Virus record (IMG/VR): IMGVR_UViG_3300020158_000005
Location: 64,001-114,269 of that record
Source: a virus
Lineage: Duplodnaviria; Heunggongvirae; Uroviricota; Caudoviricetes
Strand: one strand, 5' to 3'
DNA length: 50,269 bases
Numbering within the stretch: position 1 is the first letter of the stretch; each line of letters starts with the position of its first letter. Made by a program: the position numbers and the translations under genes. Positions 492 to 49,332 of the stretch are shown here, piece by piece. The notes beneath the pieces were generated by a model. That model saw only the letters and a list, made by a program, of their open reading frames with translations. It was not told the DNA's origin and ran no database searches.

Positions 492-3400
492 ATGTCCAAC
501 CCATCATGTTCAGTTATCCCTATTAATAACCCATGTCCTACATCACCTGATAGTAAGTGTGTGGTGTATACAGGTGCTATTTTACCAAACTTAGGGGTAA
601 ATACTAATGAAAGGTTACAATCTATATTACAAAAAATAGACGAGTTAGTAGGGATTAATTTTACTGCCACTCTAGCATCTCTGTACGATGTGCATCTTGT
701 AAACCCATTAAATGGTCAATTATTATCATATGATGGTACTTTACATAAATGGATAAACATCACTCCTGTATATCAGAAACCTTTATCACTTACTACTTTA
801 GGAAATAGTGGTAGTTCTTCTCTTATAGCTGACGTATTAAATGTTCCCACATATACACTTTCTGGGCTTGGTGGTGTACCTTTATCTCGTACTATCACTA
901 TAAATGGCACAACTTACGACTTAAGTGCTGATAGAGTGTTTGTTACAGGTAGTTTAACAAATTTCTCTGCAAACAATTTCTCTCCTTTATTTAATACATC
1001 TGTTTCCACATCTACTACCACTCCTGTTTTGAGCTTTACAGCTATACCACAGGTAGGTAATAAGATATATGCATCCCCAGATGGTGCTACAGGAATCCCT
1101 TTATTTAGAAGTTTAGTTCCTTTAGATATTCCTGCATTAAACTATGTTACTTCTGTAGGTGCTAGTGGTCCATTAGTTTCTTCAGGAGGATTAACACCAT
1201 CTATTAGCATTCCTAAAGCAACAACCACTATAAGTGGTTATTTATCTGCTACAGATTTTAATGTATTTAATAATAAAGAAGGGGCTATTGTAGTAGGTAA
1301 TATTAATCAATATTGGAGAGGAGATAAATCTTTCCAAAATCTTGATACATTAGCTGTAACAGAAAATATAAATCTGTATTATACAGATGCTCGTTCTAGG
1401 GCAGCTATTTCTGCAGGAGCAGGAATTTTGTATAATCCCACTACAGGAGTTATATCAGCTTCAGCTTCTTCTGTAACAATATCGGCAGGTGCAGGTATAT
1501 CTATAACAGGAACCTATCCCAATTTTACAATAGCTTCCACTATTACGCAATATACAGATGCACTTGCTAGATTAACTATAAGTAGTTCTATTACAGCTAT
1601 CACTTATAATAATCTCACAGGTGTATTTAGTCTTACAGCAGGATATGGTATACCAACTACTACAGAAATAGCAGCTTGGAATGCTCTTGTTACTATGACT
1701 TATCCTGCAGCAGGTATTGCTGTATCAACAGGAACAGGATGGGGAACATCTATAATAGATAATTCAGCTAATTGGAACACAGCATATTCTTGGGGTAATC
1801 ATGCACTAGCAGGATACTTTCTTGCAGCTAATTTTAATAGTTCTTTTGATACTAGATTAGCACTAAAGACTACTACAGATTTAGCTGAGGGTACTAATTT
1901 ATATTTTACAAATAGTAGAGCAATAAATTCTACTCTTACAGGATATATATCAGGGGCAGGAACTATCTCAGCTACAGATAGTATATTAAGTGCCATACAA
2001 AAATTGAATGGTAATATCACTGCATTAACAACAGGTGTCTCAAGTGTATTTGGTAGGACAGGAACTGTAGTAGCAGTTAGTGGAGATTATAATACAAGTC
2101 AGGTAACAGAGAATACAAATCTTTATTATACAGACGCAAGAGCAAGAGCTTCTATATCCCTAACAGTTACAGGTAATAATGGAGCAAGTAGCTATAGTAA
2201 TACTACAGGAATACTTAATATACCAACATATACCTTAAGTGGTTTATCAGGTCAACCATTAAATAACAACTTAACTTCTTTATCAGGACTATCCTATGCA
2301 TCCTTAGCTTTTGTTAAGATGTCTGCATCAGGAACATTTACTCTTGATACAAATACTTATCTTACAGGTAACCAAACAATTACTCTTTCAGGAGATGTAA
2401 CAGGTTCAGGTACTACAAGTATAGCAACTACAATTGGAGCAGGTAAGGTAACTAATACAATGTTAGTTAACTCCTCTTTCTACATAGGAACTACTCTTAT
2501 TCCACTTGGTAGAGCTAGTTTGGCACAATCCTTAACAGGTATTACATCTATAGATGGAAGTGCAGCTACTCTTACTACAGGAAGAACAATTTCAGGTACA
2601 GGAGAAGCTACATTTACAACAGGTGCTTTTGATGGTAGTGCAGCAGTATCAGGTAGTGTAACATTACTTAACTCTGCTGTTACAGGTAAAGTTCTTACAG
2701 GACTTAATCTTTCTTCAGGTGGTACAATTTTAGCTACAGATAGTATACTGGTAGCATTTGGAAGAGTACAAAATCAAATATCAGCTCTTGCAGGAGGTGT
2801 AACCTATCAAGGTGTATGGAATGCAAGTACTAATACTCCAACTATTACTTCTTCTGTAGGAACTAAAGGATACTATTATGTAGTATCTGTTACTGGGTCT
2901 ACTAATATAGATGGTATCAGTGATTGGAAATTAGGTGACTGGATTATTTTTAATGGTACTACTTGGGATAAAGTAGATAATACAGATGCAGTATCAAGTG
3001 TAAATGGATTTACAGGAGCAGTATCTCTTACTACAGCAAATATATCTGAGGTAACAAATCTTTATTATCTTGATAGTAGAGCTAGGGCAGCAATATCTTT
3101 AACTACTACAGGTAATTCAGGGGCTGCTACATATAATAACACCACAGGAGTCTTTAATATTCCTACATATACATTTGATGGTCTTTCTCCTATGACTACA
3201 GCAGGAGATATGATTTATGGTGGAGTAGCAGGAGCAGCAACTAGACTTGGAATTGGCGGAGCAAATACAGTACTTCATGGTGGTGCAAGTGCTCTTTCTT
3301 GGAGTGCAGTGGTAGAAGCAGATATATCCTTATCTAATAACGTAACTAATAACGTTACTACAACTAGACATGGATTTGTACCTATTCTACCTAATAATGC

Positions 3401-3929
3401 CACCCTATTCTTTAATGGTCAAGGTAATTTTACTACTCCTAGTGGACTTAGTATTAATAACTCTTACTCACAAACAGGATTCTCAGGAACTACAGTAACT
3501 GTAGTGCATAATTGGGGAGCATATCCTGTAGTACAAGTAGTGGATAGTACAGGTGCTGTAATAATCCCAATGAGTATTGTTAATAATACGCTAAATGATT
3601 TTACAGTAACATTTTCTAGTGCACATACAGGAACTGTAATAGCTTCTGTAGGTGGTCCACAACCACAAGCGGTATCTGTAGTAACTTCAAACTACTCTGT
3701 ATTGACTACAGATAGAATTGTTAAGGTGACAACAGTAGGTATTATAGTAACACTTCCTACAGCTGTAGGTAATACAGGTAGAGAGTTCTTAATTAACAAC
3801 ACTACAGCAGGAAACATTTTCTTAACAACAACTAGTTCACAAACTATTAATAATCAAATCACACAAACAATTCCTCCTTATTCAACACTAGATGTATATT
3901 CAGATGGTGCAGGATATTGGATTGTATAA
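492..3929 (+). CDS. Tail fibre-like protein with internal repeats (1145 aa)
   Basis: Thr/Gly/Ser-rich; four T-x-x-x-NLY(Y/F)xxxR repeats, repeated N(I/V)PTYT motifs, YQGVWNASTNTP...GDWIIFNG..WDKVDNT module typical of phage fibres. Confidence 0.8.
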   Translation: MSNPSCSVIPINNPCPTSPDSKCVVYTGAILPNLGVNTNERLQSILQKIDELVGINFTATLASLYDVHLVNPLNGQLLSYDGTLHKWINITPVYQKPLSLTTLGNSGSSSLIADVLNVPTYTLSGLGGVPLSRTITINGTTYDLSADRVFVTGSLTNFSANNFSPLFNTSVSTSTTTPVLSFTAIPQVGNKIYASPDGATGIPLFRSLVPLDIPALNYVTSVGASGPLVSSGGLTPSISIPKATTTISGYLSATDFNVFNNKEGAIVVGNINQYWRGDKSFQNLDTLAVTENINLYYTDARSRAAISAGAGILYNPTTGVISASASSVTISAGAGISITGTYPNFTIASTITQYTDALARLTISSSITAITYNNLTGVFSLTAGYGIPTTTEIAAWNALVTMTYPAAGIAVSTGTGWGTSIIDNSANWNTAYSWGNHALAGYFLAANFNSSFDTRLALKTTTDLAEGTNLYFTNSRAINSTLTGYISGAGTISATDSILSAIQKLNGNITALTTGVSSVFGRTGTVVAVSGDYNTSQVTENTNLYYTDARARASISLTVTGNNGASSYSNTTGILNIPTYTLSGLSGQPLNNNLTSLSGLSYASLAFVKMSASGTFTLDTNTYLTGNQTITLSGDVTGSGTTSIATTIGAGKVTNTMLVNSSFYIGTTLIPLGRASLAQSLTGITSIDGSAATLTTGRTISGTGEATFTTGAFDGSAAVSGSVTLLNSAVTGKVLTGLNLSSGGTILATDSILVAFGRVQNQISALAGGVTYQGVWNASTNTPTITSSVGTKGYYYVVSVTGSTNIDGISDWKLGDWIIFNGTTWDKVDNTDAVSSVNGFTGAVSLTTANISEVTNLYYLDSRARAAISLTTTGNSGAATYNNTTGVFNIPTYTFDGLSPMTTAGDMIYGGVAGAATRLGIGGANTVLHGGASALSWSAVVEADISLSNNVTNNVTTTRHGFVPILPNNATLFFNGQGNFTTPSGLSINNSYSQTGFSGTTVTVVHNWGAYPVVQVVDSTGAVIIPMSIVNNTLNDFTVTFSSAHTGTVIASVGGPQPQAVSVVTSNYSVLTTDRIVKVTTVGIIVTLPTAVGNTGREFLINNTTAGNIFLTTTSSQTINNQITQTIPPYSTLDVYSDGAGYWIV

Positions 3930-3941
3930 AAATAAACTATT

Positions 3942-6179
3942 ATGTCATATTTCACACAAGTTAGTTATTCAGATACAGGTTCTTTAGATGCGTTCTCAAG
4001 ATTAAGAACATCTAATCCTGAAACTTTATTTGCTGTTCAATCTCAATATGATACCAATCCTATAGAGATGGAAGGAGGATTTATAGGTACAGGAACTGCT
4101 GCTCCAACTTATAGCACTTCTACAAGAATGGTTGCATTGACAGCTACTGCTGGTACAGGAAGTGTATTTTATCAATCCTATCAATATAGTTCATATCAAC
4201 CAGGTAAAGCATTAAAACATGGAGAACCTGTTTTAACTGTTAATGGGTGGGTTAACATTGAAGATATAAAACTTGGAGATACTATCTTTGATGGACTAGG
4301 TAAAGAAACTAAAGTTATAGGTGTTTTTCCACAAGGAGAAAGAAAAATCTATAGAATCACTTTTGATGATGGTACTCATGTAGATTGTGATGGAGAACAT
4401 CTTTGGAAAACCATTGTAAGATGGGAAGGTAAAGCAGGTCAAGAAAGAGTATTAACTACTAATCAAATGTTAGACGAACATGGGGAAGTATCATCATCTT
4501 ATAACAGATGGAGAATACCTGCATCACCAGTACTTGAAATAACTGAAAAACCTGTTCCTATAGATGCTTATACATTAGGTGCTATTTTAGGAGATGGCAG
4601 TATAGATAAAAAATCTAGTTTTGTTCAATTTACTACAGCAGATTTAGAGATACTTTCTTATTTAAAGTGTGATATTAGTAAGTACGAGGCTAAGTATCAA
4701 TATGGGTTATTAGGTTTAGCAGAAAGTATTAGAACTTTAAAATTAGATAATACTAATTTTTTAACTAAATTTGTTCCTAACGAATATTTATATAACTCAA
4801 AAGAGATTAGATTAGCAATTTTACAGGGACTGATGGATACAGATGGTACTGTAGATAAAGTAGATGGCACTACTGAATACAACTCAGCCAGTAAACAATT
4901 AGCGGAAGATGTTGCATTTTTAGTTCGTTCATTAGGTGGGCAAGCAAAAATAAAAATAAAAGAAGCTAGTTATAAGAATGAAGATGGGGATAAGGTTAAA
5001 TGTTCTGACAGTTATAGAGTAAGAGTAATAATGCCTATTTGTCCATTTAAACTAGAGAGAAAATCATTCTATTGGAAGCCTAGAACTAGAATTTCTTTTG
5101 ATAGATATATTCATTCTATTAAAGAGCTTGGGGATTACCAAGCAACTTGTATAAGAGTAGAATCAGAAGACCATACATTCTTAACTAGAAATAATATAGT
5201 TACTCACAATAGTCAATTTATAGCTTTAACAGGTGTAGTAGGTACAGGTGTTGCAGGAGCTGTAGTTGATTATGGATATGGTGATAGTTTGAATGGTATA
5301 TTTTTAAGACAAAGTGGAACTACTATGCAAGTAGTACAAAGAAGTAATACTTCAGGAGCTGTAGTAGAAACAGTTATATCTCAATCTGCTTGGAATTTAG
5401 ATAAAATGGATGGTACAGGTAACTCAGGAATCACTTTTGATGTTACAAAAGCATTTATTCTTATAATGGATTTACAATTCCTTGGAATGGGTAGAGTAAG
5501 ATTTGGATTTGATATAAATGGAGTAGTATATTATTTTCATCAAATATTTAATGCTAACGTACTTGCTGTACCTTATATGCAACAAGCTACACTTCCTATC
5601 AGTGTTACCTTGACTACTACTGCTACTATAGCTACTAAAACATGTTATTTTAAATGTGCTACAGTACAGTCTGAAGGTGGTAGTTTACAAAACTTTGGGT
5701 ATAACTTTGCTACCCCTGAAGGAACTGTAACTGCAGGTAATGGAGCTAGAACATCTTTATTAGCTCTTAGACCATTAACAACATTTAATGGAATTCCTAA
5801 TAGGTCTCAAATTATTCTTGGAAATCTAGCAATAGCTGTTACAGGAACATCTCCTATATTCTGGGAATTATGTACAGGTGCTGTTTATACAGTAGCTCCT
5901 ACATTTGCTAGTGTAAATGCTGCTAACTCTTCTACACAATATGGTACAGGTGGAACATTTGGTAATTTAACAACAGGTCAGGTAATAGCTTCAGGATATG
6001 TAACAGGTTCAGGAGCAGGAGCAGCAGGAGTATCAAGTCCTACTATTTCACTACATAATCCAATTGCTCTTAATAGAGCAGGTGCTGTAACAGCTTTAGG
6101 TACACTTAGTTTACTTGTATCAGGAATAGGAGGTAATAGTGCAACTAGAGCATCATTTAACTTTGCAGAAATACGTTGA
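3942..6179 (+). CDS. Putative virion/tail protein containing an intein (745 aa precursor, ~411 aa spliced)
   Basis: Lies between two fibre genes; DAFSRLRTSNP N-terminal motif; intein removal joins YQPGK to SQFIAL; beta-rich T/G/A C-extein. Confidence 0.75.
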   Translation: MSYFTQVSYSDTGSLDAFSRLRTSNPETLFAVQSQYDTNPIEMEGGFIGTGTAAPTYSTSTRMVALTATAGTGSVFYQSYQYSSYQPGKALKHGEPVLTVNGWVNIEDIKLGDTIFDGLGKETKVIGVFPQGERKIYRITFDDGTHVDCDGEHLWKTIVRWEGKAGQERVLTTNQMLDEHGEVSSSYNRWRIPASPVLEITEKPVPIDAYTLGAILGDGSIDKKSSFVQFTTADLEILSYLKCDISKYEAKYQYGLLGLAESIRTLKLDNTNFLTKFVPNEYLYNSKEIRLAILQGLMDTDGTVDKVDGTTEYNSASKQLAEDVAFLVRSLGGQAKIKIKEASYKNEDGDKVKCSDSYRVRVIMPICPFKLERKSFYWKPRTRISFDRYIHSIKELGDYQATCIRVESEDHTFLTRNNIVTHNSQFIALTGVVGTGVAGAVVDYGYGDSLNGIFLRQSGTTMQVVQRSNTSGAVVETVISQSAWNLDKMDGTGNSGITFDVTKAFILIMDLQFLGMGRVRFGFDINGVVYYFHQIFNANVLAVPYMQQATLPISVTLTTTATIATKTCYFKCATVQSEGGSLQNFGYNFATPEGTVTAGNGARTSLLALRPLTTFNGIPNRSQIILGNLAIAVTGTSPIFWELCTGAVYTVAPTFASVNAANSSTQYGTGGTFGNLTTGQVIASGYVTGSGAGAAGVSSPTISLHNPIALNRAGAVTALGTLSLLVSGIGGNSATRASFNFAEIR
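4209..5210 (+). mobile_element. Class 3 intein (Ala1 start, WCT triplet) with LAGLIDADG endonuclease, 334 aa
   Basis: ALKHGEPVLT start; block B CDGEHLW; LGAILGDG and LQGLMDTDG motifs; block F TCIRV; ends VTHN followed by Ser. Confidence 0.92.
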
Positions 6180-6225
6180 GCCATTAAACTTTTTTATAAT
6201 ATAAAGTTTAAATTAATAATACACA

Positions 6226-8748
6226 ATGAAAATAGATAGTCCTAAAATAGAAAATCTCATAACAAATGGTTTTGTAAAGACTTCAGGAAGTGATGGAACA
6301 CTTTCTGTAGATACTACAGCGTATCAACCACTATTAACCCCTGCTGCTTTAACTAAAGTGGATGATACCAACGTAACTATTATATTGGGTGGGACTCCTG
6401 CAACTTCTTTATTACAAGCAGTATCTATCACACTTGGTTGGACAGGTACTCTTGCTGATGCTAGAATAGCTTCTGCTGCCACATGGAATGCAAAACAAGT
6501 AGCATATACAAATTTAACTACTATAGGCTCTTTAGCAAATGCTAATGGATTTTTAAGACAAAATGGTAGTGGAGTTTTTTCTTATGATACAAATACTTAT
6601 TACTTAGCATCAAATCCAAATAGTTATACAAGTAATTTAGGTACTGTCACTAGTGTTTCTATGACTGTACCCACTGGATTAACTATTTCAGGTAGTCCAA
6701 TAACTACGTCAGGTACATTAGCTCTTACTCTTACAACAGGATATTCTATTCCTACTACAGCAAGTCAGTCTAATTGGGATGCTGCTTATTCTGCTAGAAT
6801 AACTACTCTTACAGTAATAGGAAGTAGTGGTAGTGCTACATTAGTAGGTCAAACATTAAACATTCCTACTTATACGCTCGCTGGTTTAGGTGGGCAACCT
6901 TTAAATACAAACCTTACTTCTTTATCAGCCCTATCTTATACGTCAGCCTCATTCGTTAAAATGACGGCTGCAGGTACGTTTGCTTTAGATACTAATACTT
7001 ATCTTACTGCCAATCAGACTATTACTCTTTCAGGTGATGTTTCAGGTAGTGGAACAACTGCTATTACAACTACACTAGCTTCCATTATAACAGCAGGTGG
7101 ACCTACAGGAAGTTCTTCTGTAGTACCCGTAATAACATACGATGCTAAGGGTAGACTTACTGCTGTATCTACAGCCACCATAACACCTGCATCTATTGGA
7201 GCATCACCTTTAGCAGGTTCATCCTCCATAACAACAGTAGGTACTCTCTCTAGTGGGAGTATTCCTTATAGTTTATTGAGTGGTACTATTCCAACTTGGA
7301 ATCAGAATACAACTGGAACGGCTGCGAATGTAACCTTTAACAATGTTACAGGTGGTTCAAGTTATCCAGTATTATTGAATAGTACAAATTCAGTTGGCTA
7401 TAATGCAACTGTATTTGTAAACTTAGTTAATGGCTCTTTAAATGCAACTACTTTTATTGGAGCAGGAAATTCATTGACATCATTACCAACTAATACTGCT
7501 TTATATCCTACATTAAATCAAAATACAAGTGGAACTGCTGCAATTGCAACAACATTTGGAGGTTCTACTGCAAATTTTGGTACTGCTGTTACTCCTGTTA
7601 ATATTGTTGCCCAACAATCAGGCGGTTCATTGGGCGTAGTAGCAGTTGCAGGGCTTCAATCTTTTCTTGGACTTGGTTCTAACGCTTATACTTCTACTGC
7701 TTATTTGCCTTTAACTGGCGGAACTTTGACAGGGGGATTAACAGGAACAAGTGCGAGTTTTAGTTCTAGCGGTAATACATTCACAATTCAAAATAATGGA
7801 GGTGGAGATAATCTAATTCTAAATAAAGGTACTGGGTCGTCTATAATTCTTAATAAAACAAATACTACTGCTCAAAGTTGGGCTATTGCCGCCGACCCTA
7901 ATTTTAGAATTTCAGATGCAACTGCATCAACAAATCCTTTTACAATTACATTAGGAACAGGAGCAGCTACATTTAGTAGTAGTGTAACTGCTAAAACATT
8001 TTCAACATCCTCTGTTATCAATCCACCAAGTTCGGGCGTAACAACAGGAGTAAGTATAGGTTTTGATGCAAACCACGAATGGGGATGGATTCAATCAACA
8101 AGAAATAGTGCAAGTGAAATAAGAAATTTATTTATACAGCCTTTAGGTGGTAATACATCTTTTGGTGCAACTCAAACTATAACTTTTACAAGTGCAGGAG
8201 CAGCTACATTTAGTAGTAGTGTTCAAGCCACTTCAATGTCTATTGGTATTGCACCACAAACCGATAAACTATTTATTTATAATGAAAGTGGTACAAATAC
8301 AGGAGAAACTATTCAACAAGATGGAACAGGCGATATTTTTAGGGCAAATGGAAATAGTGGGGCTAATAGGTTTACAATTACTCAAGCAGGAGTAGTATCA
8401 ATATTAGCCACCACCGCTTCAACAAGCACAACAACAGGTGCATTAGTTGTAAGTGGGGGTGTGGGGGTTGGAGGTAATGTATATGCAACAGGCTTCTACA
8501 ACTCTTCTGATGCTATATTAAAAAATGTTTTATCTAGAGATGGAGATGTAGTATATTTTAATTGGAAGGATAAGAGAGATAATCTACTACATATAGGATA
8601 TATTGCACAGGAGATGCTTAGTGTATATCCAAATCAAGTAAGTGGTGTGGAAGGTTCTTACAGTGTTAATTACACTGAGATATTAGTAGATAAAGTAAGA
8701 AGATTAGAAAATAAAGTTTTAGAACTTGAAAAATTATTGAATATATGA
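6226..8748 (+). CDS. Tail fibre/spike protein with C-terminal peptidase S74 intramolecular chaperone (840 aa)
   Basis: T/G/S-rich body; C-terminus SDAILK...FNWK...GYIAQEM...YP..V...SVNY..I followed by a coiled coil. Confidence 0.85.
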   Translation: MKIDSPKIENLITNGFVKTSGSDGTLSVDTTAYQPLLTPAALTKVDDTNVTIILGGTPATSLLQAVSITLGWTGTLADARIASAATWNAKQVAYTNLTTIGSLANANGFLRQNGSGVFSYDTNTYYLASNPNSYTSNLGTVTSVSMTVPTGLTISGSPITTSGTLALTLTTGYSIPTTASQSNWDAAYSARITTLTVIGSSGSATLVGQTLNIPTYTLAGLGGQPLNTNLTSLSALSYTSASFVKMTAAGTFALDTNTYLTANQTITLSGDVSGSGTTAITTTLASIITAGGPTGSSSVVPVITYDAKGRLTAVSTATITPASIGASPLAGSSSITTVGTLSSGSIPYSLLSGTIPTWNQNTTGTAANVTFNNVTGGSSYPVLLNSTNSVGYNATVFVNLVNGSLNATTFIGAGNSLTSLPTNTALYPTLNQNTSGTAAIATTFGGSTANFGTAVTPVNIVAQQSGGSLGVVAVAGLQSFLGLGSNAYTSTAYLPLTGGTLTGGLTGTSASFSSSGNTFTIQNNGGGDNLILNKGTGSSIILNKTNTTAQSWAIAADPNFRISDATASTNPFTITLGTGAATFSSSVTAKTFSTSSVINPPSSGVTTGVSIGFDANHEWGWIQSTRNSASEIRNLFIQPLGGNTSFGATQTITFTSAGAATFSSSVQATSMSIGIAPQTDKLFIYNESGTNTGETIQQDGTGDIFRANGNSGANRFTITQAGVVSILATTASTSTTTGALVVSGGVGVGGNVYATGFYNSSDAILKNVLSRDGDVVYFNWKDKRDNLLHIGYIAQEMLSVYPNQVSGVEGSYSVNYTEILVDKVRRLENKVLELEKLLNI

Positions 8749-11476: not shown

Positions 11477-11508
11477 TTTGGTAAATTAAAATAGTTAATC
11501 TATATTTG
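11477..11508 (+). promoter_or_regulatory. Bacteroidota sigma70-type promoter TTTG-N20-TATATTTG
   Basis: Exact -33/-7 consensus and spacing upstream of 11528. Confidence 0.8.
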
Positions 11509-13589: not shown

Positions 13590-13879
13590 TGTGCACGATT
13601 ATTTTAAAAGGTACAGCAGCAGATGTTCTATTAGAGAACGAGAAAACATACATTAACTATTTGAGTGGTATATTAGATAGTTGTGACGAACTCGCTACAA
13701 CAGAAATAACTAGAAACCCCTCTACATATAGTTTTAGAATCGTGTGTTCAGCTCCTAAGTATTCTCAAATAGTGCTATCCCAACTACTTGATTTTCATAA
13801 TTTGCTTAATATAAAGCTTGACCTTTCTAAGTCAATTAGAAATGCAGGAACAATAAATTTTGAAATTACACTAAACTAG
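13589..13879 (+). CDS. Hypothetical protein
   Basis: 96-aa ORF, TAATG coupling. Confidence 0.65.
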   Translation: MCTIILKGTAADVLLENEKTYINYLSGILDSCDELATTEITRNPSTYSFRIVCSAPKYSQIVLSQLLDFHNLLNIKLDLSKSIRNAGTINFEITLN

Positions 13880-13889
13880 CGTATATTTG
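13859..13889 (+). promoter_or_regulatory. Promoter TTTG-N19-TATATTTG
   Basis: Exact consensus upstream of 13905. Confidence 0.75.
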
Positions 13890-18268: not shown

Positions 18269-21200
18269 TTATAATCTATCCTGAATTGAACAAGAATTTC
18301 CACTGCAGGCAATGGAAGCATAATCGCTAACATCTTTATATTCAGGCTTAGTAAGAATCTTTGAAAGGTCTACTTCTTTAAATTGTTTATCAATGGTTTC
18401 CCATTTATGCAGAATATGCACATCTTTTAAACAATATACCATATTATCTATGTTATTCTTAAAATAGTTCTTAGCAAATTTCTTAGCTCTATCAATCCAA
18501 TATTTCTTCAATAACACTTGTTCTCTTGTTCCTGCAATAGGTTCCGTTTTGTCCTTTACAGATTTACAAGCTTGCCAAAGATTACCATTAAAATAATGTA
18601 ACCCATCTACAATAAGTCCCGAAGCAAATAAAGCTCCTGTACCATATTTAGCAATAATTTCTTCTAATGTAACTAGTTCTGTTAGGGGGGCTTGATTCCA
18701 CTCTCTACTACCAAAGTCACTTAAGAAAGAAATAGCTGTAAAAGCATCTTTATTATCCCAAATATAGTCAGCACATTTTTCCTTATCTCCTTCTCCTAAC
18801 ACTACTGTACAGGATACATTATGATTAATACCTCTATATCCACATAATTCAGGAACAGTTCCTGGCATTACCCAGTTTTCTTGTACTAATTTAATGTATT
18901 CTAGATGTTTTACACCCAGTACATCTTTCTTTAATAAGGCATCTTTATTATTCGCTACAGGAACATATACAACATAATCAGTTTTACTGTCACTATGTAC
19001 ACTTTCCTCTATCATATAAGGTCTATTTTCGGCTAACCACTTAGCTACGGTGTTTTCTTTGTTAATTTGCATCACTCTAAAATAGTTTCTAGCTTCTTCA
19101 GCAGAAATACCACCTACAGTCATAGCAATAACACTAGAATTACCTCCAGGTTTAACACAAGTAGTACGAGCAGCTTGATTGATTCCTATCATATCAGCTA
19201 CTATTTTGTTCGTATTCACTACTAATGCAGCACCTTCTCTTAGCCATTCTGGGTTAAATAGCTTAGGATTATTCATCCAACCTATTACAGAAATTCCTAA
19301 TAAAGCTTCTTTCTCAAAGATTTTTTCACTCACCTCTCCTAAATAAGGGAAAGACGTATAACCTGCTTGACAAGTTCCTAATATAGCAGAATGAACACAA
19401 GCTTTCAAAAATAACTCTTTTGTAGTACATTTTTCAGCTACAATTTCATTTAAATTACATTGCTTAGTTAAAACATTATTAAATACTCCTTGGTGTAATT
19501 CTGTTTCTTCAAAACAATATGAGTTATGTAAACCTGGGAGTAACTCTATAGTATCTATAATTTGTACTTTTCCTTTTTTAGTTGGTTCTTCTTTTGATAA
19601 CTCTCCTTTTGAACACCATAGCTCGGAACAGTCTGAAATTTGTAAATACCATATATCTTTATTTCTAATAGCATAGTTAGTTTTTACTCCTTTTTCTTGC
19701 ATTAAATTAACAGAAGAATCTATCCCTATTTTTGTTAGCAACAACTGGCAATCTCTAATTTTACTTTCTTCCCCATAAATTCTCAGCTTGCCATTATAAG
19801 TAATTGTACCGTCAGTATCTACCCACCCAGCAATAAAATTAATAATACTCTGTTTATTCCAAGTAAACACTTTAGATGGTAAACCTTCTTCATATTTTAA
19901 AGAAACCGAAAAATCTCTATCTAATTTATCAAAAGTTACATTATAATAATCTCCTGATTTTGTGGTGTTTAACACTTCACTTTTTTTACCACATATAAAA
20001 GGGAAGTCTAAATGAAAATTAGATTTATAAACAGAGGCAAAAGGTAGTCTTGATTTACCATTTTGATAATTTCTACACGTACCGTCACCTAATAGAAAAC
20101 CATAATCGTAAGCATATTCTTCTAAGACACCATCAGTATATATAATATTAGATTTAGGTACTGAAACTTTATATTTTTCAGTATTATTCAATAATTCAGA
20201 TAGTTTTAACTCTCTGTAGTTTTCTTCAAATCTATTTTTAACCAAAAACTTATGATTTTCTGTACAATCAAGATAGGACCCATCTGAAAAACCCACTCTA
20301 TATAGATTTCTATTAACACCTGTTAATACAGGCTTAACTTTTGACCATTTAACCCCATTCCAAATCTCTATTTCTTCCTTATTTTCCGCAACTTCTCCAA
20401 TAACTCTAATTCCATCTCTAGTTATAAGTTTTGTGTTATATTCAACACATCCCTGTACTCCAAATAAATCTTCATTAACCTTTGTAAACTCTTGAATATC
20501 ATCATAATGTATTTTACTTAAATCCCCATCATAAAGAATAGGTAGTTTACTAATTTCAAAACAAGGATTGAACATATCAAACCAAGAGTTAGCAAATACG
20601 AATCCAATATCATTTTGTCCACCATTTAGATTTACAAGATAATCAAACTGTTCTTTTGTTACTAAATTACGTATTAATATAACGCTATTATTGGTTCTTT
20701 CTCTTTGTTTGTTTTCAGAATACCAATTCCCTGTTTTAGCTAATATCATTTCCTCGTCATTAGGGTCTACGATGAAATCCAAAGCAGCTCTTCTCACGCC
20801 ACCACTAAGTACAGCATTAGACAAATGGCAAATAACATCTCCAACTACAATAGGTCTTAATTCATTTCCTTCTGTAATCATCCAATTATCTAACACTTGC
20901 TCTATTTTTTCAAGAGCATTTTTAAGGGGTTCATAACCAGGGGCTTTAAATCCCCCAGAGATAAATGTACCTTTTTCACGTATACCGCTACCATCGAACT
21001 TAATCTTATACCCTGTATATTCAGGAAAAGGGGCTTTATCTACAAAATAAGAAGACATTAATACACCTGCTGCATCTGCCCATCCTTCAATACTATCTTC
21101 AATTACAAATGTTTTTGTACCTAATAATCTAGGCTGAATCTTTGAAATATTCTTAACAAAAGGAATTAATAAACCTACACCTACTCCACAACCATTTAAA

Positions 21201-21523
21201 GCTAGATAGAACACTTCTTGAAAAACTCTGTTTCTTGAAGCATGCGTAGAAGTACAATTGTACATCCTAAGATTACTCCTTTCTATTTGTTTATATCTAT
21301 ACTGTAAATTCCTTTGTGAAGCTAAAATAAGCATATCACCTAAAGAGTCTTCTACTTCGTTTAGTAATACATTTAATTCTTCATTTTGATACTTTATTCT
21401 ATGCCCATTAATAATGTCCTTAGAAGCATCTTTCCATGTTTCATACCTACCTTCATCCATCCATTTAAAATAATCTGAATGTAATTTTAGGTCAGATAGA
21501 AACTTTTTTCCTTTGTTTGTCAT
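18269..21523 (-). CDS. nrdJ: Class II (B12-dependent, RTPR/monomeric-type) ribonucleotide reductase with intein
   Basis: YNCT, DSIEGWAD, SGGVRRAA, NPCFEI, (QG)CNLNEI, TTCVKPGG and C-terminal ACSGNSC; no nrdB in window. Confidence 0.88.
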   Translation of the reverse strand: MTNKGKKFLSDLKLHSDYFKWMDEGRYETWKDASKDIINGHRIKYQNEELNVLLNEVEDSLGDMLILASQRNLQYRYKQIERSNLRMYNCTSTHASRNRVFQEVFYLALNGCGVGVGLLIPFVKNISKIQPRLLGTKTFVIEDSIEGWADAAGVLMSSYFVDKAPFPEYTGYKIKFDGSGIREKGTFISGGFKAPGYEPLKNALEKIEQVLDNWMITEGNELRPIVVGDVICHLSNAVLSGGVRRAALDFIVDPNDEEMILAKTGNWYSENKQRERTNNSVILIRNLVTKEQFDYLVNLNGGQNDIGFVFANSWFDMFNPCFEISKLPILYDGDLSKIHYDDIQEFTKVNEDLFGVQGCVEYNTKLITRDGIRVIGEVAENKEEIEIWNGVKWSKVKPVLTGVNRNLYRVGFSDGSYLDCTENHKFLVKNRFEENYRELKLSELLNNTEKYKVSVPKSNIIYTDGVLEEYAYDYGFLLGDGTCRNYQNGKSRLPFASVYKSNFHLDFPFICGKKSEVLNTTKSGDYYNVTFDKLDRDFSVSLKYEEGLPSKVFTWNKQSIINFIAGWVDTDGTITYNGKLRIYGEESKIRDCQLLLTKIGIDSSVNLMQEKGVKTNYAIRNKDIWYLQISDCSELWCSKGELSKEEPTKKGKVQIIDTIELLPGLHNSYCFEETELHQGVFNNVLTKQCNLNEIVAEKCTTKELFLKACVHSAILGTCQAGYTSFPYLGEVSEKIFEKEALLGISVIGWMNNPKLFNPEWLREGAALVVNTNKIVADMIGINQAARTTCVKPGGNSSVIAMTVGGISAEEARNYFRVMQINKENTVAKWLAENRPYMIEESVHSDSKTDYVVYVPVANNKDALLKKDVLGVKHLEYIKLVQENWVMPGTVPELCGYRGINHNVSCTVVLGEGDKEKCADYIWDNKDAFTAISFLSDFGSREWNQAPLTELVTLEEIIAKYGTGALFASGLIVDGLHYFNGNLWQACKSVKDKTEPIAGTREQVLLKKYWIDRAKKFAKNYFKNNIDNMVYCLKDVHILHKWETIDKQFKEVDLSKILTKPEYKDVSDYASIACSGNSCSIQDRL
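19460..20449 (-). mobile_element. Intein with LAGLIDADG domain and C-terminal Gln, 330 aa
   Basis: Starts CVEYNTKLIT, block B CTENHKF, GFLLGDG and AGWVDTDG motifs, ends NNVLTKQ followed by Cys. Confidence 0.92.
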
Positions 21524-29934: not shown

Positions 29935-31140
29935 TCATGCAACTCCATCCCTTAGGTCTTCTGCGGTCCTCCGTCTCGTTTCAAAATCCTGCACTATTTC
30001 TGCATCAGAATAATCTGCCTCATAATCATCTTCCTCATATTCATCATCTTCTTCTGTTTGAAGAGCTTCTGAAACAAATGAAGGGTCTTCAAATTTAGCT
30101 TTAAATTGGGAAATAATTTGAGAAATTTCTTTCTTTCTGCCTATAATAGATTTTTCTTTAAGTTCATTTCCTCCTATATAACAATAATCCTTCATAAATT
30201 CAAAAGGAACATAATATATTTGAGCTTTTGTAGCTAGAAGATGTGGTTCCACATATTTCTTATACATTGTTCTAAAAGCTTTGTGAGGATAAGAAGTACC
30301 TTGTAAATCTTTATCTACTAGAAATATCACTTTAGTCATATCTATAGTGCCATGTAATAATATATGTAGTTTTTGATACATATAATTTTCTGGTAATACT
30401 ATAGGAAGTACAACAGGTAATATTTCAGCAGATGTATTTCTAAATAAAGAATAACTACCCATACTAGCAGAGAAAGTACGCATATTTATTGTAGTTAATC
30501 CTTCTTTGAAAACATTTTCTGTTATATTATCATAACGATGTATCCAACCACTATTTTCTAATAAAAGTGGATTTTCCTGTCCAAGATATGCATTTACATA
30601 TGTATCTACAGAACCTTTTATAGAATCATGCCCACTACCATCTGTAATTAAGTTATAAATAAAATAACTTAATGGATTTTCTTTATCCTTTAAAGTAGCT
30701 TTAAACATATCTACATGTTCTCCTGTTAAAGACCTTCCTTGTCTACTATCTATATATTTTTCATTTATATAGTGGTATCTTTTATTAAAAAGTTGGGGAG
30801 CCACAGATAAATAAACTAAGGGAATAAACTCAGAAAAAGGACACATAAAATACCTACTAGCACTACTTAGTCCTCTTGAGTTAGTACCTAATTTAAAAAT
30901 ACTTGCAGGAGCTTCAGCTCCATTATCTTTTCCTTCCCAAAAAGGAGGAATGATTTTAGGTTTTACAGTACGTTTCCTTTTTACAGGTGCTGTTGTAGAT
31001 ATAGTAATAGAAGGATTATCAGTAGTTTCTGCAGGAATTTCTTGCATTCTTGCTGCATAGTCCCATGCGGCATCTATAGTCATAGTTTCTCCAATACTAG
31101 CTTGTGGCAACGATTCCGTTCTCACTTGTAATTGTCTCAT
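29935..31140 (-). CDS. Hypothetical protein at the end of the Ubl cassette (acidic C-terminus)
   Basis: 401-aa ORF overlapping the E1 stop; start uncertain. Confidence 0.7.
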   Translation of the reverse strand: MRQLQVRTESLPQASIGETMTIDAAWDYAARMQEIPAETTDNPSITISTTAPVKRKRTVKPKIIPPFWEGKDNGAEAPASIFKLGTNSRGLSSASRYFMCPFSEFIPLVYLSVAPQLFNKRYHYINEKYIDSRQGRSLTGEHVDMFKATLKDKENPLSYFIYNLITDGSGHDSIKGSVDTYVNAYLGQENPLLLENSGWIHRYDNITENVFKEGLTTINMRTFSASMGSYSLFRNTSAEILPVVLPIVLPENYMYQKLHILLHGTIDMTKVIFLVDKDLQGTSYPHKAFRTMYKKYVEPHLLATKAQIYYVPFEFMKDYCYIGGNELKEKSIIGRKKEISQIISQFKAKFEDPSFVSEALQTEEDDEYEEDDYEADYSDAEIVQDFETRRRTAEDLRDGVA

Positions 31141-31870
31141 TTTGATTTAATTTAATTTGTTCTACAGATTCAGTTTTATAATCTAAGAATGGTCCAAAGA
31201 ACCTTTGATGGAATGGAACTTCTTTAAATTCAGCACCCATTTTCTTGTTTGCCAACCAGTTACAGAAGGTAGCTGTAATAAAAGTTGCAATACCCATAGC
31301 TACAAAAGTAGTTTGTTTCATGGTACAATCAAGTTCTTCTATCTCACTATCATCAAATAACCAATTTTTATATTCTTCAATTTGTTCAGGATGGTCCCCT
31401 TGAACAACAAACACTTCACATAATTCTCCTGCCATTCTACCGTCTATAAATAAACAATCTTCATATTCAGCAGGGTCTTTAGCAAGTGTATGATTCTCCC
31501 ATTCTAAGAAAATTTCTTTACGGGCTTTCATATTATCTAAACCAGTAATACAAATATCCATCATACCAAAGTCAAGAGAATACATTTCTTTTATAGGAGT
31601 AAGATTATTAACGCAACCAAATTGATTACAAATTTCTGCTACAGCACTCACTTTACTCTTACCAATATCAGATTGTCTATACATTTGACCACCTTGTACA
31701 TTAGTTTCATCTACATTATCTCCATCAATAATATAAATTTCATGCATAATTCTACTTAAAGATAGGCAAGTCCAGCTTCCAATACCGCCAGCTCCTATCA
31801 TCATTATTTCTTTTTGCTGGTCAGCCCAATCAAATCCCGACCATCTTTTACCTTGAATTAATTTGTTCAT
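31097..31870 (-). CDS. ThiF/E1-like ubiquitin-like activating enzyme
   Basis: IGAGGIGS, IIDGDNVDETN..GQ.Y...DIGKSKV, TGLDNMKAR, FIDGR, candidate catalytic Cys in DCTMKQT. Confidence 0.9.
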   Translation of the reverse strand: MNKLIQGKRWSGFDWADQQKEIMMIGAGGIGSWTCLSLSRIMHEIYIIDGDNVDETNVQGGQMYRQSDIGKSKVSAVAEICNQFGCVNNLTPIKEMYSLDFGMMDICITGLDNMKARKEIFLEWENHTLAKDPAEYEDCLFIDGRMAGELCEVFVVQGDHPEQIEEYKNWLFDDSEIEELDCTMKQTTFVAMGIATFITATFCNWLANKKMGAEFKEVPFHQRFFGPFLDYKTESVEQIKLNQNETITSENGIVATS

Positions 31871-31921: not shown

Positions 31922-32884
31922 TTAATCTACCATCACATGTCCTAATACAGTAGGTCCGTCACTTACAGCTTCTTCAGTTTCAGCTAATATCATATAAGTC
32001 AGTTCTTCCACAATTCCTTTGATAAGTCTATTGTAAGTGAAAGATTTTAAATGTTTCTCTAAAAGTTCTAACACTTGAATATAATCCCAAATACTTGCTT
32101 GTGGATACATAATTCCAAAATGCTCTTCAAAAGCTATGGAAAACTCAGCTAGATAGCTATCTAATTGTTTCTTAGTTTTAAGAAGATTATTCTTTTTAAT
32201 TAAGTTCTCTACAGGAGAATCTGGAGTCATTAAGTAGTTTTCTTCCACAAAAGAATTCAAAACACCATAAGCATCTTCTTTAGACATTAACAATGTCAAA
32301 GTGCTTTCTTGGGGTTTATATTTCTCATCTACATATTTTCTCCACTCTTCATCAGTCATATCCATGATGTCTTTATCTCTTTTTTGAGATTTAGTACCAT
32401 ATCCATAGTAGTCATCATCATTCAATCCTAATTCTCCTTGTTCCCATTTAGAATTCGTACTATCTTTGCCAGTATAGCTACTACCCATGCTCCCATATTT
32501 TCCACCATATCCACCATATACTCCATTATAAAATCCAGGATAGACAGGTTTAGCATCATCAATAGCTTTCTTAACAGCAGTGTAGCGAGCAGCAAAAGCT
32601 TCTTCTACAGGAACTACTGCATTTTCAAATTGTATTTTACAATCCATCACTACTAATACATCCTTAGATTTTTCTCCACCTAATACAAGGGGCTCAAATC
32701 CATCTAAATTATTGGCAAATTCCAGAGTAGTATCTGGTTTACCATTTCTTGTAGCTTTAAATGCTACTTTAGCTACGTATTCTCCTTTGAAATTTACTAT
32801 AAGCATAAGCAAATAGTTACTCAATACACCCCTATCTTCTAATTGTGACCAATCGGTTCCACTAAAGAAAGCACTCATAGAATG
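31922..32884 (-). CDS. JAB/MPN+ metalloprotease, exon 2 (320 aa)
   Basis: Begins HSMSAFFSGTD, completing the JAMM motif HxH-x7-S-x2-D. Confidence 0.88.
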   Translation of the reverse strand, partial: HSMSAFFSGTDWSQLEDRGVLSNYLLMLIVNFKGEYVAKVAFKATRNGKPDTTLEFANNLDGFEPLVLGGEKSKDVLVVMDCKIQFENAVVPVEEAFAARYTAVKKAIDDAKPVYPGFYNGVYGGYGGKYGSMGSSYTGKDSTNSKWEQGELGLNDDDYYGYGTKSQKRDKDIMDMTDEEWRKYVDEKYKPQESTLTLLMSKEDAYGVLNSFVEENYLMTPDSPVENLIKKNNLLKTKKQLDSYLAEFSIAFEEHFGIMYPQASIWDYIQVLELLEKHLKSFTYNRLIKGIVEELTYMILAETEEAVSDGPTVLGHVMVD

Positions 32885-32928
32885 CAGTTACGTTATTGGG
32901 AATTTTTTAATTATTTCCCACTTTATTT

Positions 32929-32959
32929 TTTGTTATTTAAAATTAATTATTTATATTTG
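32929..32959 (+). promoter_or_regulatory. Promoter TTTG-N19-TATATTTG for the antisense intron ORF
   Basis: Exact Bacteroidota consensus 20 nt upstream of ATG 32980. Confidence 0.8.
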
Positions 32960-32979
32960 CTCTCACCATAAAATAAATT

Positions 32980-33621
32980 ATGAAGAGACCTTTTCAAGGA
33001 AATATTAGATATTTCCAAAATTGTGATACCCCTATTAAAGCTTATTTTCTTGGTTTTATAGCTGCAGATGGTTGTCTATTAAGTAATGGAAAAAATTCCA
33101 TTTCTCTTTCAATAACATTATCTGAAGTAGATAGAAATCTTTTAAACAAGTTAAAAGAAGAAATAGGTTGTGAACATAGAATTTATAATATAAGAGGTAA
33201 AATGACACATAATAAAGACAAAGAAAAATATCATTGTCGTTTTCAATTGTGTAATAAACTACTTATTTCAGATTTAATGAGTTATGGATTCACAGAACGT
33301 AAATCTATAACTATGCCTAATATACTACAAAATATACCTAAAGAATTTAGAGATTCTTTTATTTTGGGATATTTTGATGGAGATGGTAGTATTTCTTACA
33401 ATATAGCAAGTAAACAACATGTTATCTCTTTTCGAGGAACAGAAGAATTTCTACAAAGTTTTGTAGAAACACTTCAGTTTGAAAAGTATAGGTTAATTAA
33501 AGATAAACAAAAGAATTGCTTTACTCTAACTGCTTGGCGTAAATCTGATATTCAAAAATTCAAACAAATATATAATAATAAAGAATTTTATTTAACTAGA
33601 AAATTTATTAAATTTCCTTAA
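32980..33621 (+). CDS. Intron-borne LAGLIDADG homing endonuclease, antisense to the intron
   Basis: YFLGFIAADG and FILGYFDGDG motifs; lies downstream of the S element (P9 region). Confidence 0.9.
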   Translation: MKRPFQGNIRYFQNCDTPIKAYFLGFIAADGCLLSNGKNSISLSITLSEVDRNLLNKLKEEIGCEHRIYNIRGKMTHNKDKEKYHCRFQLCNKLLISDLMSYGFTERKSITMPNILQNIPKEFRDSFILGYFDGDGSISYNIASKQHVISFRGTEEFLQSFVETLQFEKYRLIKDKQKNCFTLTAWRKSDIQKFKQIYNNKEFYLTRKFIKFP

Positions 33622-33836
33622 AAATCAATAAAGACCAGACTATATCATCTTCCTATTTCACTATAGGAAGTCGGGTTCTCGTGTTAGCTTCATCACCGTT
33701 CTGGTGGTATGCTATTAGTCGTTGCACCTTCATTCTATTCCTAGAAAGCTCGGCTCAGGATTGGAGCTTTTTAACTCTTTCCCTGAATTCTCCCAATTGT
33801 TAATATACATTACTGTATAAGAGCACCATTATGTCA

Positions 33837-34199
33837 ATGCGTGTGAATATGATGATTCTTTTGAGTTCCGTCCATTAATCCAGGATAAGCTTCATAAAGC
33901 TCAATAATATCGGCAGATTTAAATCCACCCTTATCTACTTCATATCCTGTAAATCCAGAAGTTCCAATATCTACTAAATAAATATCTTCACAGATGATAG
34001 TCCATTCATCTAAATCATTAATTGTTTTAATTTCGGAAGTGATAAGTTCACCACTCCATTCAATAGCTCCACACTGTTTGTGTAGATAATCAATTTGTTT
34101 TTTTAATTTCTCTGTAATAATCACTGTAGGTTTATTACTTAATTCTAGTCTATCCAAACACTGCTTGGTAACGTAGGGTTTTTGCACTTTGGTATCCAT
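33837..34199 (-). CDS. JAB/MPN+ metalloprotease, exon 1 (121 aa)
   Basis: EWSG catalytic Glu; ends HIHTH at the 5' splice site. Confidence 0.88.
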
Positions 34200-35304
34200 A
34201 ATCTAAATTAAATTTGTTAAGTTCTTCTTTTAATAATTGGTTATAATAATTTATCACATCTCCTGAAAGAGGAATAGAAGTTTTATCTTCTATTTCATCC
34301 ACGCTTTCATCATAAATTTTTGCTCCTATTTTTTCTCCTTTAAAATTAAGAGATAGTCTTTTTACATTTTCTTGTCTCCTTTTTAATAATTCTTTTATTC
34401 TATCTCTTGTAATTCCTAAATCCCTCACCTTACTATTTTCTTTATAGAATTCTAAAAGAGTAGGATGGTGAGCAATCACTTTTATTCCTTCATTATATTG
34501 GAATACTTCTTCAGGAATATTTGGTAATAGTCTATAAAATTCTACATTTGCTTGAGCAGAATCACTACTTAAGCCATACCCTATACCTGCCATTTTTATA
34601 TATGGACCGCCTTCTAAGCTCTCCCATATTAAATAATTCTCTAAACTAAAGAATAATAAATACCAACCTTCTGGAGTAGGTTCTATTAATAGGCTATTTA
34701 TTATCAGCCCAAATTCACTGCTACCGAGGCAAAATCCTCTATATTCACATAAACAACCACTTGGTAAATGAGAATGTCCATAATTAGAAGCGTATTCTTT
34801 TAAATGTAAAGTGGTTCTAGTTCCATAAAAGTTTATACTCACTTTATGTACATCTTCAACAGTACGTGGATGAATACAAAATTTAACATATAAATCTTTA
34901 ATTACATGAGAGTCCTCTCTGGAATTAGTGATGGTGAATTCAGGGAAATGTATAATAATGTCAAAAGATAAACTACCTGTTTTAACACAACCTACTCTTT
35001 CTGCCCCAAATACTTCATTAGCTATATCCTGAATACTATGTGCATCCAGAGAATATTTACCCCATAATTCCTTTGCTTCAGCTATTCTTATTTTTTCTTT
35101 TTCTTCATCGATAAATCTGTCAATATCAGAAACTTTAAAAGACCATTGTTGAGTTCTTACATCTGTAAAAACCACATCATCCCTTGAAATTTTTTCTATG
35201 GTCATAATTTGACCTAAAAACATATCCATTTGACCCCCATCAGCCCATTCTGGTGGTCTATTACTTGTTAATATTACTTGGTCCCCTTCTCTAAATTCTA
35301 ACAT
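34150..35304 (-). CDS. Prokaryotic E2/UBC-like conjugating protein with N-terminal SH3-like domain
   Basis: IHFPEF.ITNS, YGHSHL...FCLG (parallels the E2 HPN...CL core), WESLEGGPY; positioned between the Ubl and JAB genes. Confidence 0.65.
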   Translation of the reverse strand: MLEFREGDQVILTSNRPPEWADGGQMDMFLGQIMTIEKISRDDVVFTDVRTQQWSFKVSDIDRFIDEEKEKIRIAEAKELWGKYSLDAHSIQDIANEVFGAERVGCVKTGSLSFDIIIHFPEFTITNSREDSHVIKDLYVKFCIHPRTVEDVHKVSINFYGTRTTLHLKEYASNYGHSHLPSGCLCEYRGFCLGSSEFGLIINSLLIEPTPEGWYLLFFSLENYLIWESLEGGPYIKMAGIGYGLSSDSAQANVEFYRLLPNIPEEVFQYNEGIKVIAHHPTLLEFYKENSKVRDLGITRDRIKELLKRRQENVKRLSLNFKGEKIGAKIYDESVDEIEDKTSIPLSGDVINYYNQLLKEELNKFNLDYGYQSAKTLRYQAVFG

Positions 35305-35320: not shown

Positions 35321-35342
35321 AAAGGGGGATTTCTCCCCCTTT
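35321..35342 (-). terminator. Intrinsic terminator after Ubl-A
   Basis: AAAGGGGGA-GAAA loop (minus strand)-TCCCCCTT followed by a T run. Confidence 0.85.
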
Positions 35343-35346: not shown

Positions 35347-35820
35347 TTAACTACGCAATTTCTTAGCTTCAGCCAAAGCTGCTGCTAATTCTTCATCCAC
35401 TACAGGAGCTACTACCTCTGCAACAGCTATTGTAGCTCTAGGTGCTGTGAAGAAACTTTCTACACTGCTTGTTAGAGCTGCTTTTAAAGCTGCAGTCTCC
35501 TGAGCACTTGCTATACGAGCAGTTGCTTTAATTGTTGCTGCAATAGCAGTACCTACAGCATTAGCATCACTATCAGTGATACCTGCCTTATTCTTAGTAG
35601 CAATGATGAACACATTGAAATCTTCTGTAGGAAGAATGCTATCATCTCCTCTAAGAGTGATGTTACCTGGTTTTACAACCACTTCCACTCCATCACCACC
35701 ATTGTAAATACCTGCGAAAGCACTATTTGCTTTCAAATCTCCGAAGGTTACACCTGCGAAATCATTAATTCTTACTGCTGCATTTGTTTTAGCACTTGCT
35801 ACGATTACTTTTCTAGACAT
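35347..35820 (-). CDS. Ubiquitin-like (beta-grasp) precursor A: 80-aa Ubl ending KNKAG plus helical extension
   Basis: RKVIV...TFGDLK...VVVKPG..TL.GDD..LP..DF.VF...TKNKAG pattern; context next to E2/JAB/E1. Confidence 0.72.
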   Translation of the reverse strand: MSRKVIVASAKTNAAVRINDFAGVTFGDLKANSAFAGIYNGGDGVEVVVKPGNITLRGDDSILPTEDFNVFIIATKNKAGITDSDANAVGTAIAATIKATARIASAQETAALKAALTSSVESFFTAPRATIAVAEVVAPVVDEELAAALAEAKKLRS

Positions 35821-35844: not shown

Positions 35845-35873
35845 AAAAAAGGGAGCCAATATAGCTCCCTTTT
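35845..35873 (-). terminator. Intrinsic terminator after Ubl-B
   Basis: AAAAAAGGGAGC-caatata-GCTCCCTTTT. Confidence 0.85.
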
Positions 35874-35891: not shown

Positions 35892-36338
35892 TTATAAACT
35901 CTTAGCTTCAGCTAGAGCTGCTCCCAATTCAATGCAATCTGCATTTCCACCACAATTATCTACTACAGGAATAGATTTTTTGTAACTCTCAATAAAACCA
36001 ATCAAAGCATCTCTAAGAGATGTTAAATTAGCTCCTACAATTTCATCAATTACTTCATTAATTGCTTCTTCAACTTCATAAGCAACATCAGAGCTATCCA
36101 ATCCTGCTTTGTTCTTTGTAGCTACTAAGAACACGTTAAAATCACCTACTGGCAATACACTATCATCACCACGTAAAGTTACGTTTCCTGGTTTAACGAT
36201 AGCTTCTACACCATCACCATTGCCATAAATCCCTGCAAAAATAGGGTCGGCTTTCAAATCACCGAAAGTTGTTCCACTGAATTCAGTACGTGCTGCTGCA
36301 TTAGTTTTTGCACTGGCAATAATTACTTTTCTAGACAT
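35892..36338 (-). CDS. Ubiquitin-like precursor B: 79-aa Ubl ending KNKAG plus helical extension
   Basis: Clear paralogue of 35347-35820 over the first ~80 aa and the C-terminal AALAEAK. Confidence 0.72.
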   Translation of the reverse strand: MSRKVIIASAKTNAAARTEFSGTTFGDLKADPIFAGIYGNGDGVEAIVKPGNVTLRGDDSVLPVGDFNVFLVATKNKAGLDSSDVAYEVEEAINEVIDEIVGANLTSLRDALIGFIESYKKSIPVVDNCGGNADCIELGAALAEAKSL

Positions 36339-46140: not shown

Positions 46141-46172
46141 CAAAAATACAATAACTACTTAATATTATCAAA
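46141..46172 (-). promoter_or_regulatory. Promoter TTTG-N20-TATTTTTG, 4 nt upstream of the HEG ATG
   Basis: Exact consensus and spacing. Confidence 0.75.
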
Positions 46173-49259: not shown

Positions 49260-49332
49260 ATTCCCCAGTAGGACTCGAACCTACAACCTCTTGAATACAA
49301 TTCAAGGCTCTACCAATTAGAGCTATGGGGAA
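49260..49332 (-). tRNA. Atypical tRNA, best read as Thr(UGU); no encoded CCA
   Basis: Acceptor TTCCCCA/TGGGGAA, D-arm GCTC..TGGTA..GAGC, anticodon stem CTTGA/TCAAG with loop ATTGTAT, T-arm GTAGG-TTCGAGT-CCTAC. Confidence 0.7.

Follow-up and report, generated by a model that had tools for sequence, protein, structure and literature searches.

A group I intron with an antisense LAGLIDADG endonuclease gene in the JAMM motif of a phage JAB protease gene

The gene for a JAB/JAMM protease in this phage genome is found in two pieces, which raises the question of what separates them and whether a whole protease can still be made. In the window, the 50,269-nt stretch of DNA that was analysed, a 121-codon minus-strand ORF (34199-33837) ends with both zinc-ligand His codons followed by a stop, and a second frame carrying the remaining JAMM motif restarts at nucleotide 32884. 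The 952-nt insert that splits the codons of this zinc-binding motif (minus strand, 33836-32885) has a length not divisible by 3, includes 23-27 stops in each sense frame and ends with a G. The upstream exon 1 (33837-34199) encodes the conserved Glu and both zinc-ligand His residues and ends in CAU, the U of this His codon at 33837 being its last base; the 320-codon exon 2 (31922-32884) encodes the JAMM Ser and Asp.

The insert and its ribozyme core

Joining the exons generates 441 codons without a stop and the complete HxHx7SxxD motif. Among junctions shifted by up to 30 nt, three restore the frame and HxHx7SxxD, and only one of them also has a U before the insert and a G at its end. The earlier note, which had proposed a group I intron in the JAMM motif, thus had both the coordinates and the predicted junction exactly right. 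The insert matched the Rfam group I model RF00028 with 61.7 bits (cut-off, 50; E 6.4e-15), the check that the note had suggested, and an intron-less allele is shorter by exactly its length. We consider it confirmed by sequence as a group I intron, with terminal G at 32885, that is predicted to self-splice.

Whole-window Rfam scans missed this intron as a consequence of their speed filters, and therefore other introns in the window could escape such scans. A profile specific to this intron family, run against the 114-kb genome, found no intron besides the one in JAB, and a second Rfam match (genome positions 58298-58471, 20 bits), located antisense within a long ORF, was rejected as chance. A tRNA gene was found at 49260-49332 (minus strand, Rfam 51.4 bits), and internal segments of the ORFs at 3942-6179 and 18269-21523 match intein-bearing PHROGs (a structural protein and ribonucleotide reductase, respectively) and are likely inteins.

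The core elements and guide pairings that the earlier note had described as readable, P1, P10, P3, P4, P6, P7 and P8, are all present. The internal guide sequence (33823-33830, minus strand) covaries in 17 loci and consists of a P1 strand (33826-33823) and a P10 strand (33830-33827). In P1 the exon sequence GCAU pairs with GUGC at 33826-33823, G33826 forming the splice-site U-G pair with the U at the end of exon 1, and the 4-bp P10 is formed with nucleotides 32884-32881. The ribozyme core, P3 to P8, occupies 33637-33796 (minus strand), with the P7 strands at 33720-33716 and 33642-33638. An extra stem, subgroup IA-like by eye, is visible between P7 and P3, the intron has an insertion of about 38 nt relative to the Rfam model, and sequence and fold define a terminal P9-region hairpin (32898-32919, minus strand) that precedes the 3' splice site.

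Across 16 sequences the pairing of P3, P4, P6 and P7 is 100% and that of P8 is 80%. Pairing over the core helices reached 92.6%, compared to 32-51% in slid controls, and two-sided changes were counted in 50 cells, compared to 16.9 in shuffles; these controls ignore relatedness, and as the 17 loci share descent the counts are inflated. Compensatory changes were found in P1, P3 and P4. The U-G and three Watson-Crick pairs of P1 are present in 17 of 17 loci, the fourth pair being G-C in eight, C-G in eight and A-U in one (it is U-A in the cultured phage Fpv1), while P10 consists of only 0-3 bp in 7 of the 17 by an ungapped test. Free-energy folding of the core was uninformative (z -1.4).

Intron-less alleles, for which the earlier note had recommended a search, were found in a contig of run X3, in the cultured phage FpV4, and among the homologs of the protein. 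In the X3 contig the 962 letters between 32881 and 33844 are replaced by 10, a difference of minus 952, with at least 255 matching letters on each side of the junction; it represents a DNA allele roughly 99% identical to that of the window. A search with exon 2 identified 67 homologs, of which 52 have an uninterrupted motif and align without gaps at the junction of the spliced protein (best identity, 56%); exon 1 alone as query retrieved no viral relatives. A short JAB record, P0016 (L010), was considered as an intron allele and rejected, since the gene is intact and only its start was miscalled.

Beside the insertion point the X3 allele and the window differ in 4 of the 10 junction bases and in two more bases within 54 nt, that is 6 differences in 61 nt as opposed to 2 in 679 nt (p 6e-6). 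All six are synonymous, the residues remaining the same, and the two outer ones are shared by a second intron-less relative (run X1). This patch (32831-32884 with 33837-33843, minus strand), a candidate co-conversion tract, may equally have been brought in with the intron or result from recoding that protects the empty allele.

The antisense endonuclease gene

A gene for a 213-amino-acid, double-motif LAGLIDADG homing endonuclease (32980-33621, plus strand) takes up about two thirds of the intron; it is antisense to the intron and lies in the P9 region, its stop 16 nt beyond P7. The product matches PF14528 in two stretches (42 bits; cut-off, 22.5), residues Asp30 and Asp135 are invariant, and the motifs are intact in 17 of 17 loci. 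Comparison with the relative at locus L005 gave a dN of 0.11 and a dS of 0.98 (dN/dS about 0.11). These values fit purifying selection on an enzyme that would cleave DNA and support homing. On the intron strand of the delimited loci there is no open mirror frame, the longest being 15-51 amino acids.

A match to a Bacteroidota sigma-A-type promoter (32929-32959, plus strand), with a -33 box, a 19-nt spacer and a -7 box, is located 20 nt ahead of the endonuclease start and may be active. The motif used includes the -33 box and the spacing of Bacteroidota promoters. Seven full matches were found in the window (1.47 expected), of which three others precede co-oriented small ORFs (11477-11508, 13859-13889 and 46141-46172); a match at 34520-34550 (plus strand) is antisense inside the E2-like gene and points toward the region upstream of JAB exon 1, on the wrong strand. 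The -7 box, whose consensus is that of the Bacteroidota housekeeping promoter (PMC9723704), is found within 55 nt of the endonuclease start in 13 of 17 loci, as opposed to 1.5 +/- 1.1 in shuffles, and is absent in four. A sigma-70 promoter scan gave matches at chance level. The start codon has an A at -3, and in Bacteroidetes this base is a positive determinant (PMC6847099). An internal promoter of its own would make the endonuclease independent of the precursor RNA. Across loci 160-217 nt separate the endonuclease stop from the 5' splice site, and a transcript that continued past the stop would therefore overlap P7-P8; a single, weak terminator-like match was found, at 33752-33768, within the core.

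This antisense layout can not be considered the first in a phage, since the capsid intron of mycobacteriophage LittleE is a precedent. The splicing of that intron was demonstrated by RT-PCR (Pope et al. 2013, PMC3706429), and it resembles the one described here in the U before and the G at the end of the intron, the opposite-strand LAGLIDADG-like gene (gp14) and a host gene unrelated to replication. It differs in that the host is a capsid gene and gp14 is a 177-amino-acid I-CreI-like protein, compared to the 213-amino-acid double-motif protein found here; the available part of its description mentions neither a multi-site family nor an internal promoter. The introns of T4 td, nrdB and nrdD, of the SPO1 and Bastillevirinae polymerase genes and of Twort share the core, the P1 rule, an endonuclease in a peripheral loop and insertion in codons of critical residues (PMC3984707, PMC11878797). 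Their endonucleases, in contrast, are mostly GIY-YIG or HNH, and neither article mentions an antisense endonuclease. The nuclear rDNA introns Dsq.L2066 and Dir.S956-2 of Didymium also include an antisense endonuclease gene in the P9 region with its own opposite-strand promoter, but their host is a eukaryotic rRNA, the enzymes are of the His-Cys box type and transcription is by RNA polymerase II (PMC9548176).

Insertion sites and mobility of the intron family

In the contigs of the closest endonuclease relatives 22 loci could be delimited, 17 of them distinct (at least 17 distinct phage loci). In all 22 the removal of the intron restores the motif, the terminal base is G and a His CAU codon precedes the intron. 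Two insertion sites 6 nt apart are used in the 17 loci: site A, after the first catalytic His, in 10, and site B, after the second, which is that of the window, in seven. Among the best 18 viral-contig relatives of the endonuclease, 13 split a JAB gene of the window's type, three a second JAB family and one an E2-like gene, and one is free-standing. The antisense layout is the same in the contigs of the closest endonucleases, and it marks this clade, since more distant relatives that lie in introns, such as that of Bacillus phage 0305phi8-36, are sense-oriented.

The window's endonuclease groups with those of the site-A loci L003 and L005 (support 100/99; 84% and 76% identity, respectively). 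The window's JAB, on the other hand, nests among 17 intron-less JABs (SH-aLRT 95) and that of L003 falls elsewhere, in a quick tree with long branches. The marked branches of the endonuclease tree imply at least four switches between sites A and B. The intron is 82% identical to that of L005 and the flanking exons are only 63-70% identical. The homing at the JAB site proposed in the earlier note is indicated by the discordant trees and the substitution patches beside the insertion point.

The same family is found in cultured Flavobacterium phages. The genome of Fpv1 (KU599877, L120) includes the whole Ubl, E2-like, JAB and ThiF cassette, annotated as hypothetical proteins (L120 positions 1570-6602); two of these, on either side of an antisense 249-amino-acid ORF, are the halves of JAB, whereas in FpV4 JAB is whole. 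The intron is present in Fpv1, Fpv2, Fpv20 and FpV21 and lacking in FpV4, and all five phages infect one strain of the host, Flavobacterium psychrophilum 950106-1/1. The Fpv1 intron (KU599877, 67331-66311) has 1021 nt and a 6-bp P1, is inserted after a His codon 6 nt upstream of site A, which defines a third site, and scores 43.4 bits with Rfam, below the cut-off; the family profile matches it with 3e-38. After removal of the intron, 24 differences from FpV4 remain in 7597 bases, and 15 of these fall in the first 42 nt past the intron, at +3 to +42 (15 in 45 nt as opposed to 9 in 7552 nt, p 4e-29; the flanks compared are 99.8% identical). Such an exon patch is the clear trace of an intron that was acquired from a distant donor. 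The endonuclease is present in 22 Flavobacterium phage records.

Other genes and other elements are involved as well. In L037 (3853-2720, minus strand) an intron of the same family, with its antisense endonuclease, interrupts the E2-like gene at its YxHSH motif, and JAB is intact downstream. A second, distant JAB family, part of a different cassette, has the same antisense intron after the second His in L027 (about 2160-975) and in L032 and L033 (3903-2763); in the L027 JAB an 8-residue spacer precedes the Ser. The JAB motif has also been invaded independently, as shown by an ORF-less 321-nt group I intron unrelated to the window's family, 12 nt downstream of site B, in L011 (5683-6003, plus strand; Rfam 80.9 bits), whose P1 looks weak and mostly G-U. 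The E1/ThiF gene is also split shortly past its Gly-rich loop in L009 (4780-2844) and in L038 and L039 (about 1950-22, minus strand), the gap including a sense LAGLIDADG ORF in the first and an intron-core match in the other two. Further LAGLIDADG or GIY-YIG ORFs beside Ubl or E1 genes (L008, 9117-9929; L011, 2094-2798; L118, 1881-2708) point to the cassette as a hotspot of homing elements. The crAss-like phage introns (Yutin et al. 2021, PMC7886860) are likewise LAGLIDADG-bearing and found in Bacteroidota phages, but they are located in capsid, PolB, primase and ATPase genes, and neither JAB nor ThiF nor ubiquitin is mentioned in that article.

The Ubl cassette and the role of the intron

The split gene is part of a minus-strand cassette with the order Ubl, Ubl, E2-like, JAB, E1, flanked by genes for uracil glycosylase and family A polymerase. 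Ubl precursor 1 (35347-35820) includes a beta-grasp domain up to a conserved Gly80, followed by a 77-amino-acid extension, and precursor 2 (35892-36338) is 73% identical to it across the Ubl part; a terminator-like hairpin follows each Ubl gene (35325-35339 and 35847-35873, minus strand). The Ubl model (pLDDT 84) has ubiquitin, ISG15 and DIX as top matches (TM 0.5-0.6, E 0.003-0.01), and Gly80, with an extension after it, is invariant. The candidate E2-like protein (34150-35304) has an invariant Cys192 and the YxHSH motif, although searches of Pfam, PDB, PADLOC and the Atlas gave no support for its family or fold. The E1/ThiF-family protein (31097-31870) matches ThiF with 61 bits and has the Gly-rich loop and Cys182.

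As for JAB, residues Glu45, His117, His119, Ser127 and Asp130 do not vary among 26 homologs with a mean identity of 43%, 24 of which show weak, sub-cut-off matches to Pfam Prok-JAB. The model of the homolog P0003 (56% identical) matches the MPN domains of Rpn11, Rpn8 and Npl4 (E about 1e-6), which supports the assignment of the host gene to the JAB/MPN metalloproteases. Among named phages, JAB relatives occur in those of Flavobacterium and Bacteroides, one of them being the crassvirus DAC15 (L124), and the window sequence itself is present in lake-water runs.

The cassette resembles the BilABCD and Bub operons (PMC10557695, PMC11601603) in having a Ubl with a conserved Gly and an extension, a JAB peptidase, an E1 and a candidate E2; it differs in being phage-borne and in its extensions of about 70 amino acids, compared to up to 9. 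The PADLOC Bil models did not match the Ubls, JAB or the E2-like protein and matched E1 weakly (BilD), and Atlas searches with the Ubl and E2-like proteins returned no usable match. In Bil systems BilC removes the Ubl extension (PMC10557695). If the phage JAB trims after Gly80 as BilC does, it is a reasonable inference by analogy that Ubl maturation in this phage would need splicing. From the presence of the intron the earlier note had deduced a conserved, widespread site and a functional Ubl system. The site is both, but the second deduction is overstated, as the intron indicates a conserved DNA site, not a working conjugation pathway; the occurrence of the same intron family in the E2-like gene also counts against it. 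The intron is thus suggestive and not proof of function, with which the JAB and Ubl folds and conserved residues agree, the E2 being a candidate only; the case for a functional cassette rests on its independent sequence conservation and not on the intron. The expectation that phage introns reside mostly in DNA-metabolism, terminase or lysin genes holds in that most hosts are nucleotide and DNA metabolism genes (PMC12350094), but a JAB host is less exceptional than implied since capsid, tail and psbA genes are known hosts as well (PMC3706429).

All these features point to a selfish mobile group I intron, a reading, including its predicted splicing, antisense expression and homing, to which we give a probability of about 0.88. 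JAB would be transcribed leftwards along with the Ubl, E2-like and E1 genes, the intron RNA would fold and its guide would pair with the terminal CAU of exon 1, and splicing initiated by guanosine would link both His ligands to the JAMM Ser and Asp in a 441-amino-acid protease, which in turn would trim the Ubl precursors after Gly80. The endonuclease would be made from a separate rightward transcript by the host RNA polymerase, from the putative promoter within the intron's 3' end. During mixed infection it would cut intron-less JAB alleles near the His motif, and repair would copy the intron together with some flanking exon bases, of which footprints are observed. Since the fixed GUG of the guide reads any CAU and His codons recur every 6 nt, the lineage has settled anew at a nearby His codon on several occasions; the simplest routes for such a switch would be reverse splicing or mis-registered repair, with one to three changes of the guide afterwards.

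An extended form of this reading, in which the lineage is a His-CAU specialist that steps 6 nt along HxH and into the neighbouring gene while its guide is re-tuned and its antisense transcript gates JAB splicing and the timing of the Ubl, appears unlikely. It is still less probable that the intron has been domesticated as a switch, the antisense transcript into the core, or the splicing rate, timing JAB production and Ubl maturation. The antisense layout fixed throughout the clade, the predicted read-through across P7-P8 with its sole weak terminator-like match inside the core, and the location of 17 of the best 18 viral-contig relatives in Ubl-cassette genes would suit such a role. Most JAB alleles, however, including the 99% identical one and that of FpV4, lack the intron; patchy presence, site switches and purifying selection on the endonuclease fit a parasite; and the antisense orientation also occurs in the efficiently splicing capsid intron (PMC3706429).

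There is very little room for an expression of the halves as separate proteins, translated from unspliced RNA and then assembled, with splicing dispensable. A stop directly after exon 1, an in-frame ATG in exon 2 at 32878, with the loss of two residues, and the listing of the halves as separate database families (PHROG 21448 and 16107) are in its favor, but a start at the first Met past the 3' splice site would leave out zinc-ligand His codons in Fpv1 and the 10 site-A loci, the guide covaries with the exon, and the exon-2 ATG lies within a hairpin and has no A at -3 (PMC6847099); the loss of the His codons excludes such assembly for site A and Fpv1, and it is unlikely in the window's allele. 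Least probable of all is a decayed insertion that inactivated a dispensable JAB gene, since both exons are open with all catalytic residues kept, the differences near the site from an intron-less allele are all synonymous, the core helices are fully paired and cultured phages share the same architecture.

With a mobile intron at this locus, the known targets of phage group I introns come to include a gene for protein modification. In a literature search, with most subscription papers outside it, neither introns in JAB genes nor Ubl cassettes of phages were found as the subject of a paper, and in GenBank and PHROGs the halves of split JABs stand as separate hypothetical proteins. With 82%-identical relatives 6 nt apart and guides that have been re-tuned, the family offers a natural set of cases in which to follow the move of introns to new sites, and the Fpv1 and FpV4 pair, which shares a host, makes splicing, antisense expression, homing and the link between JAB and the Ubl testable. 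The JAMM codons of this undescribed phage Ubl cassette are so well conserved that a homing element can be maintained on them in Bacteroidota phages that are distant from one another.
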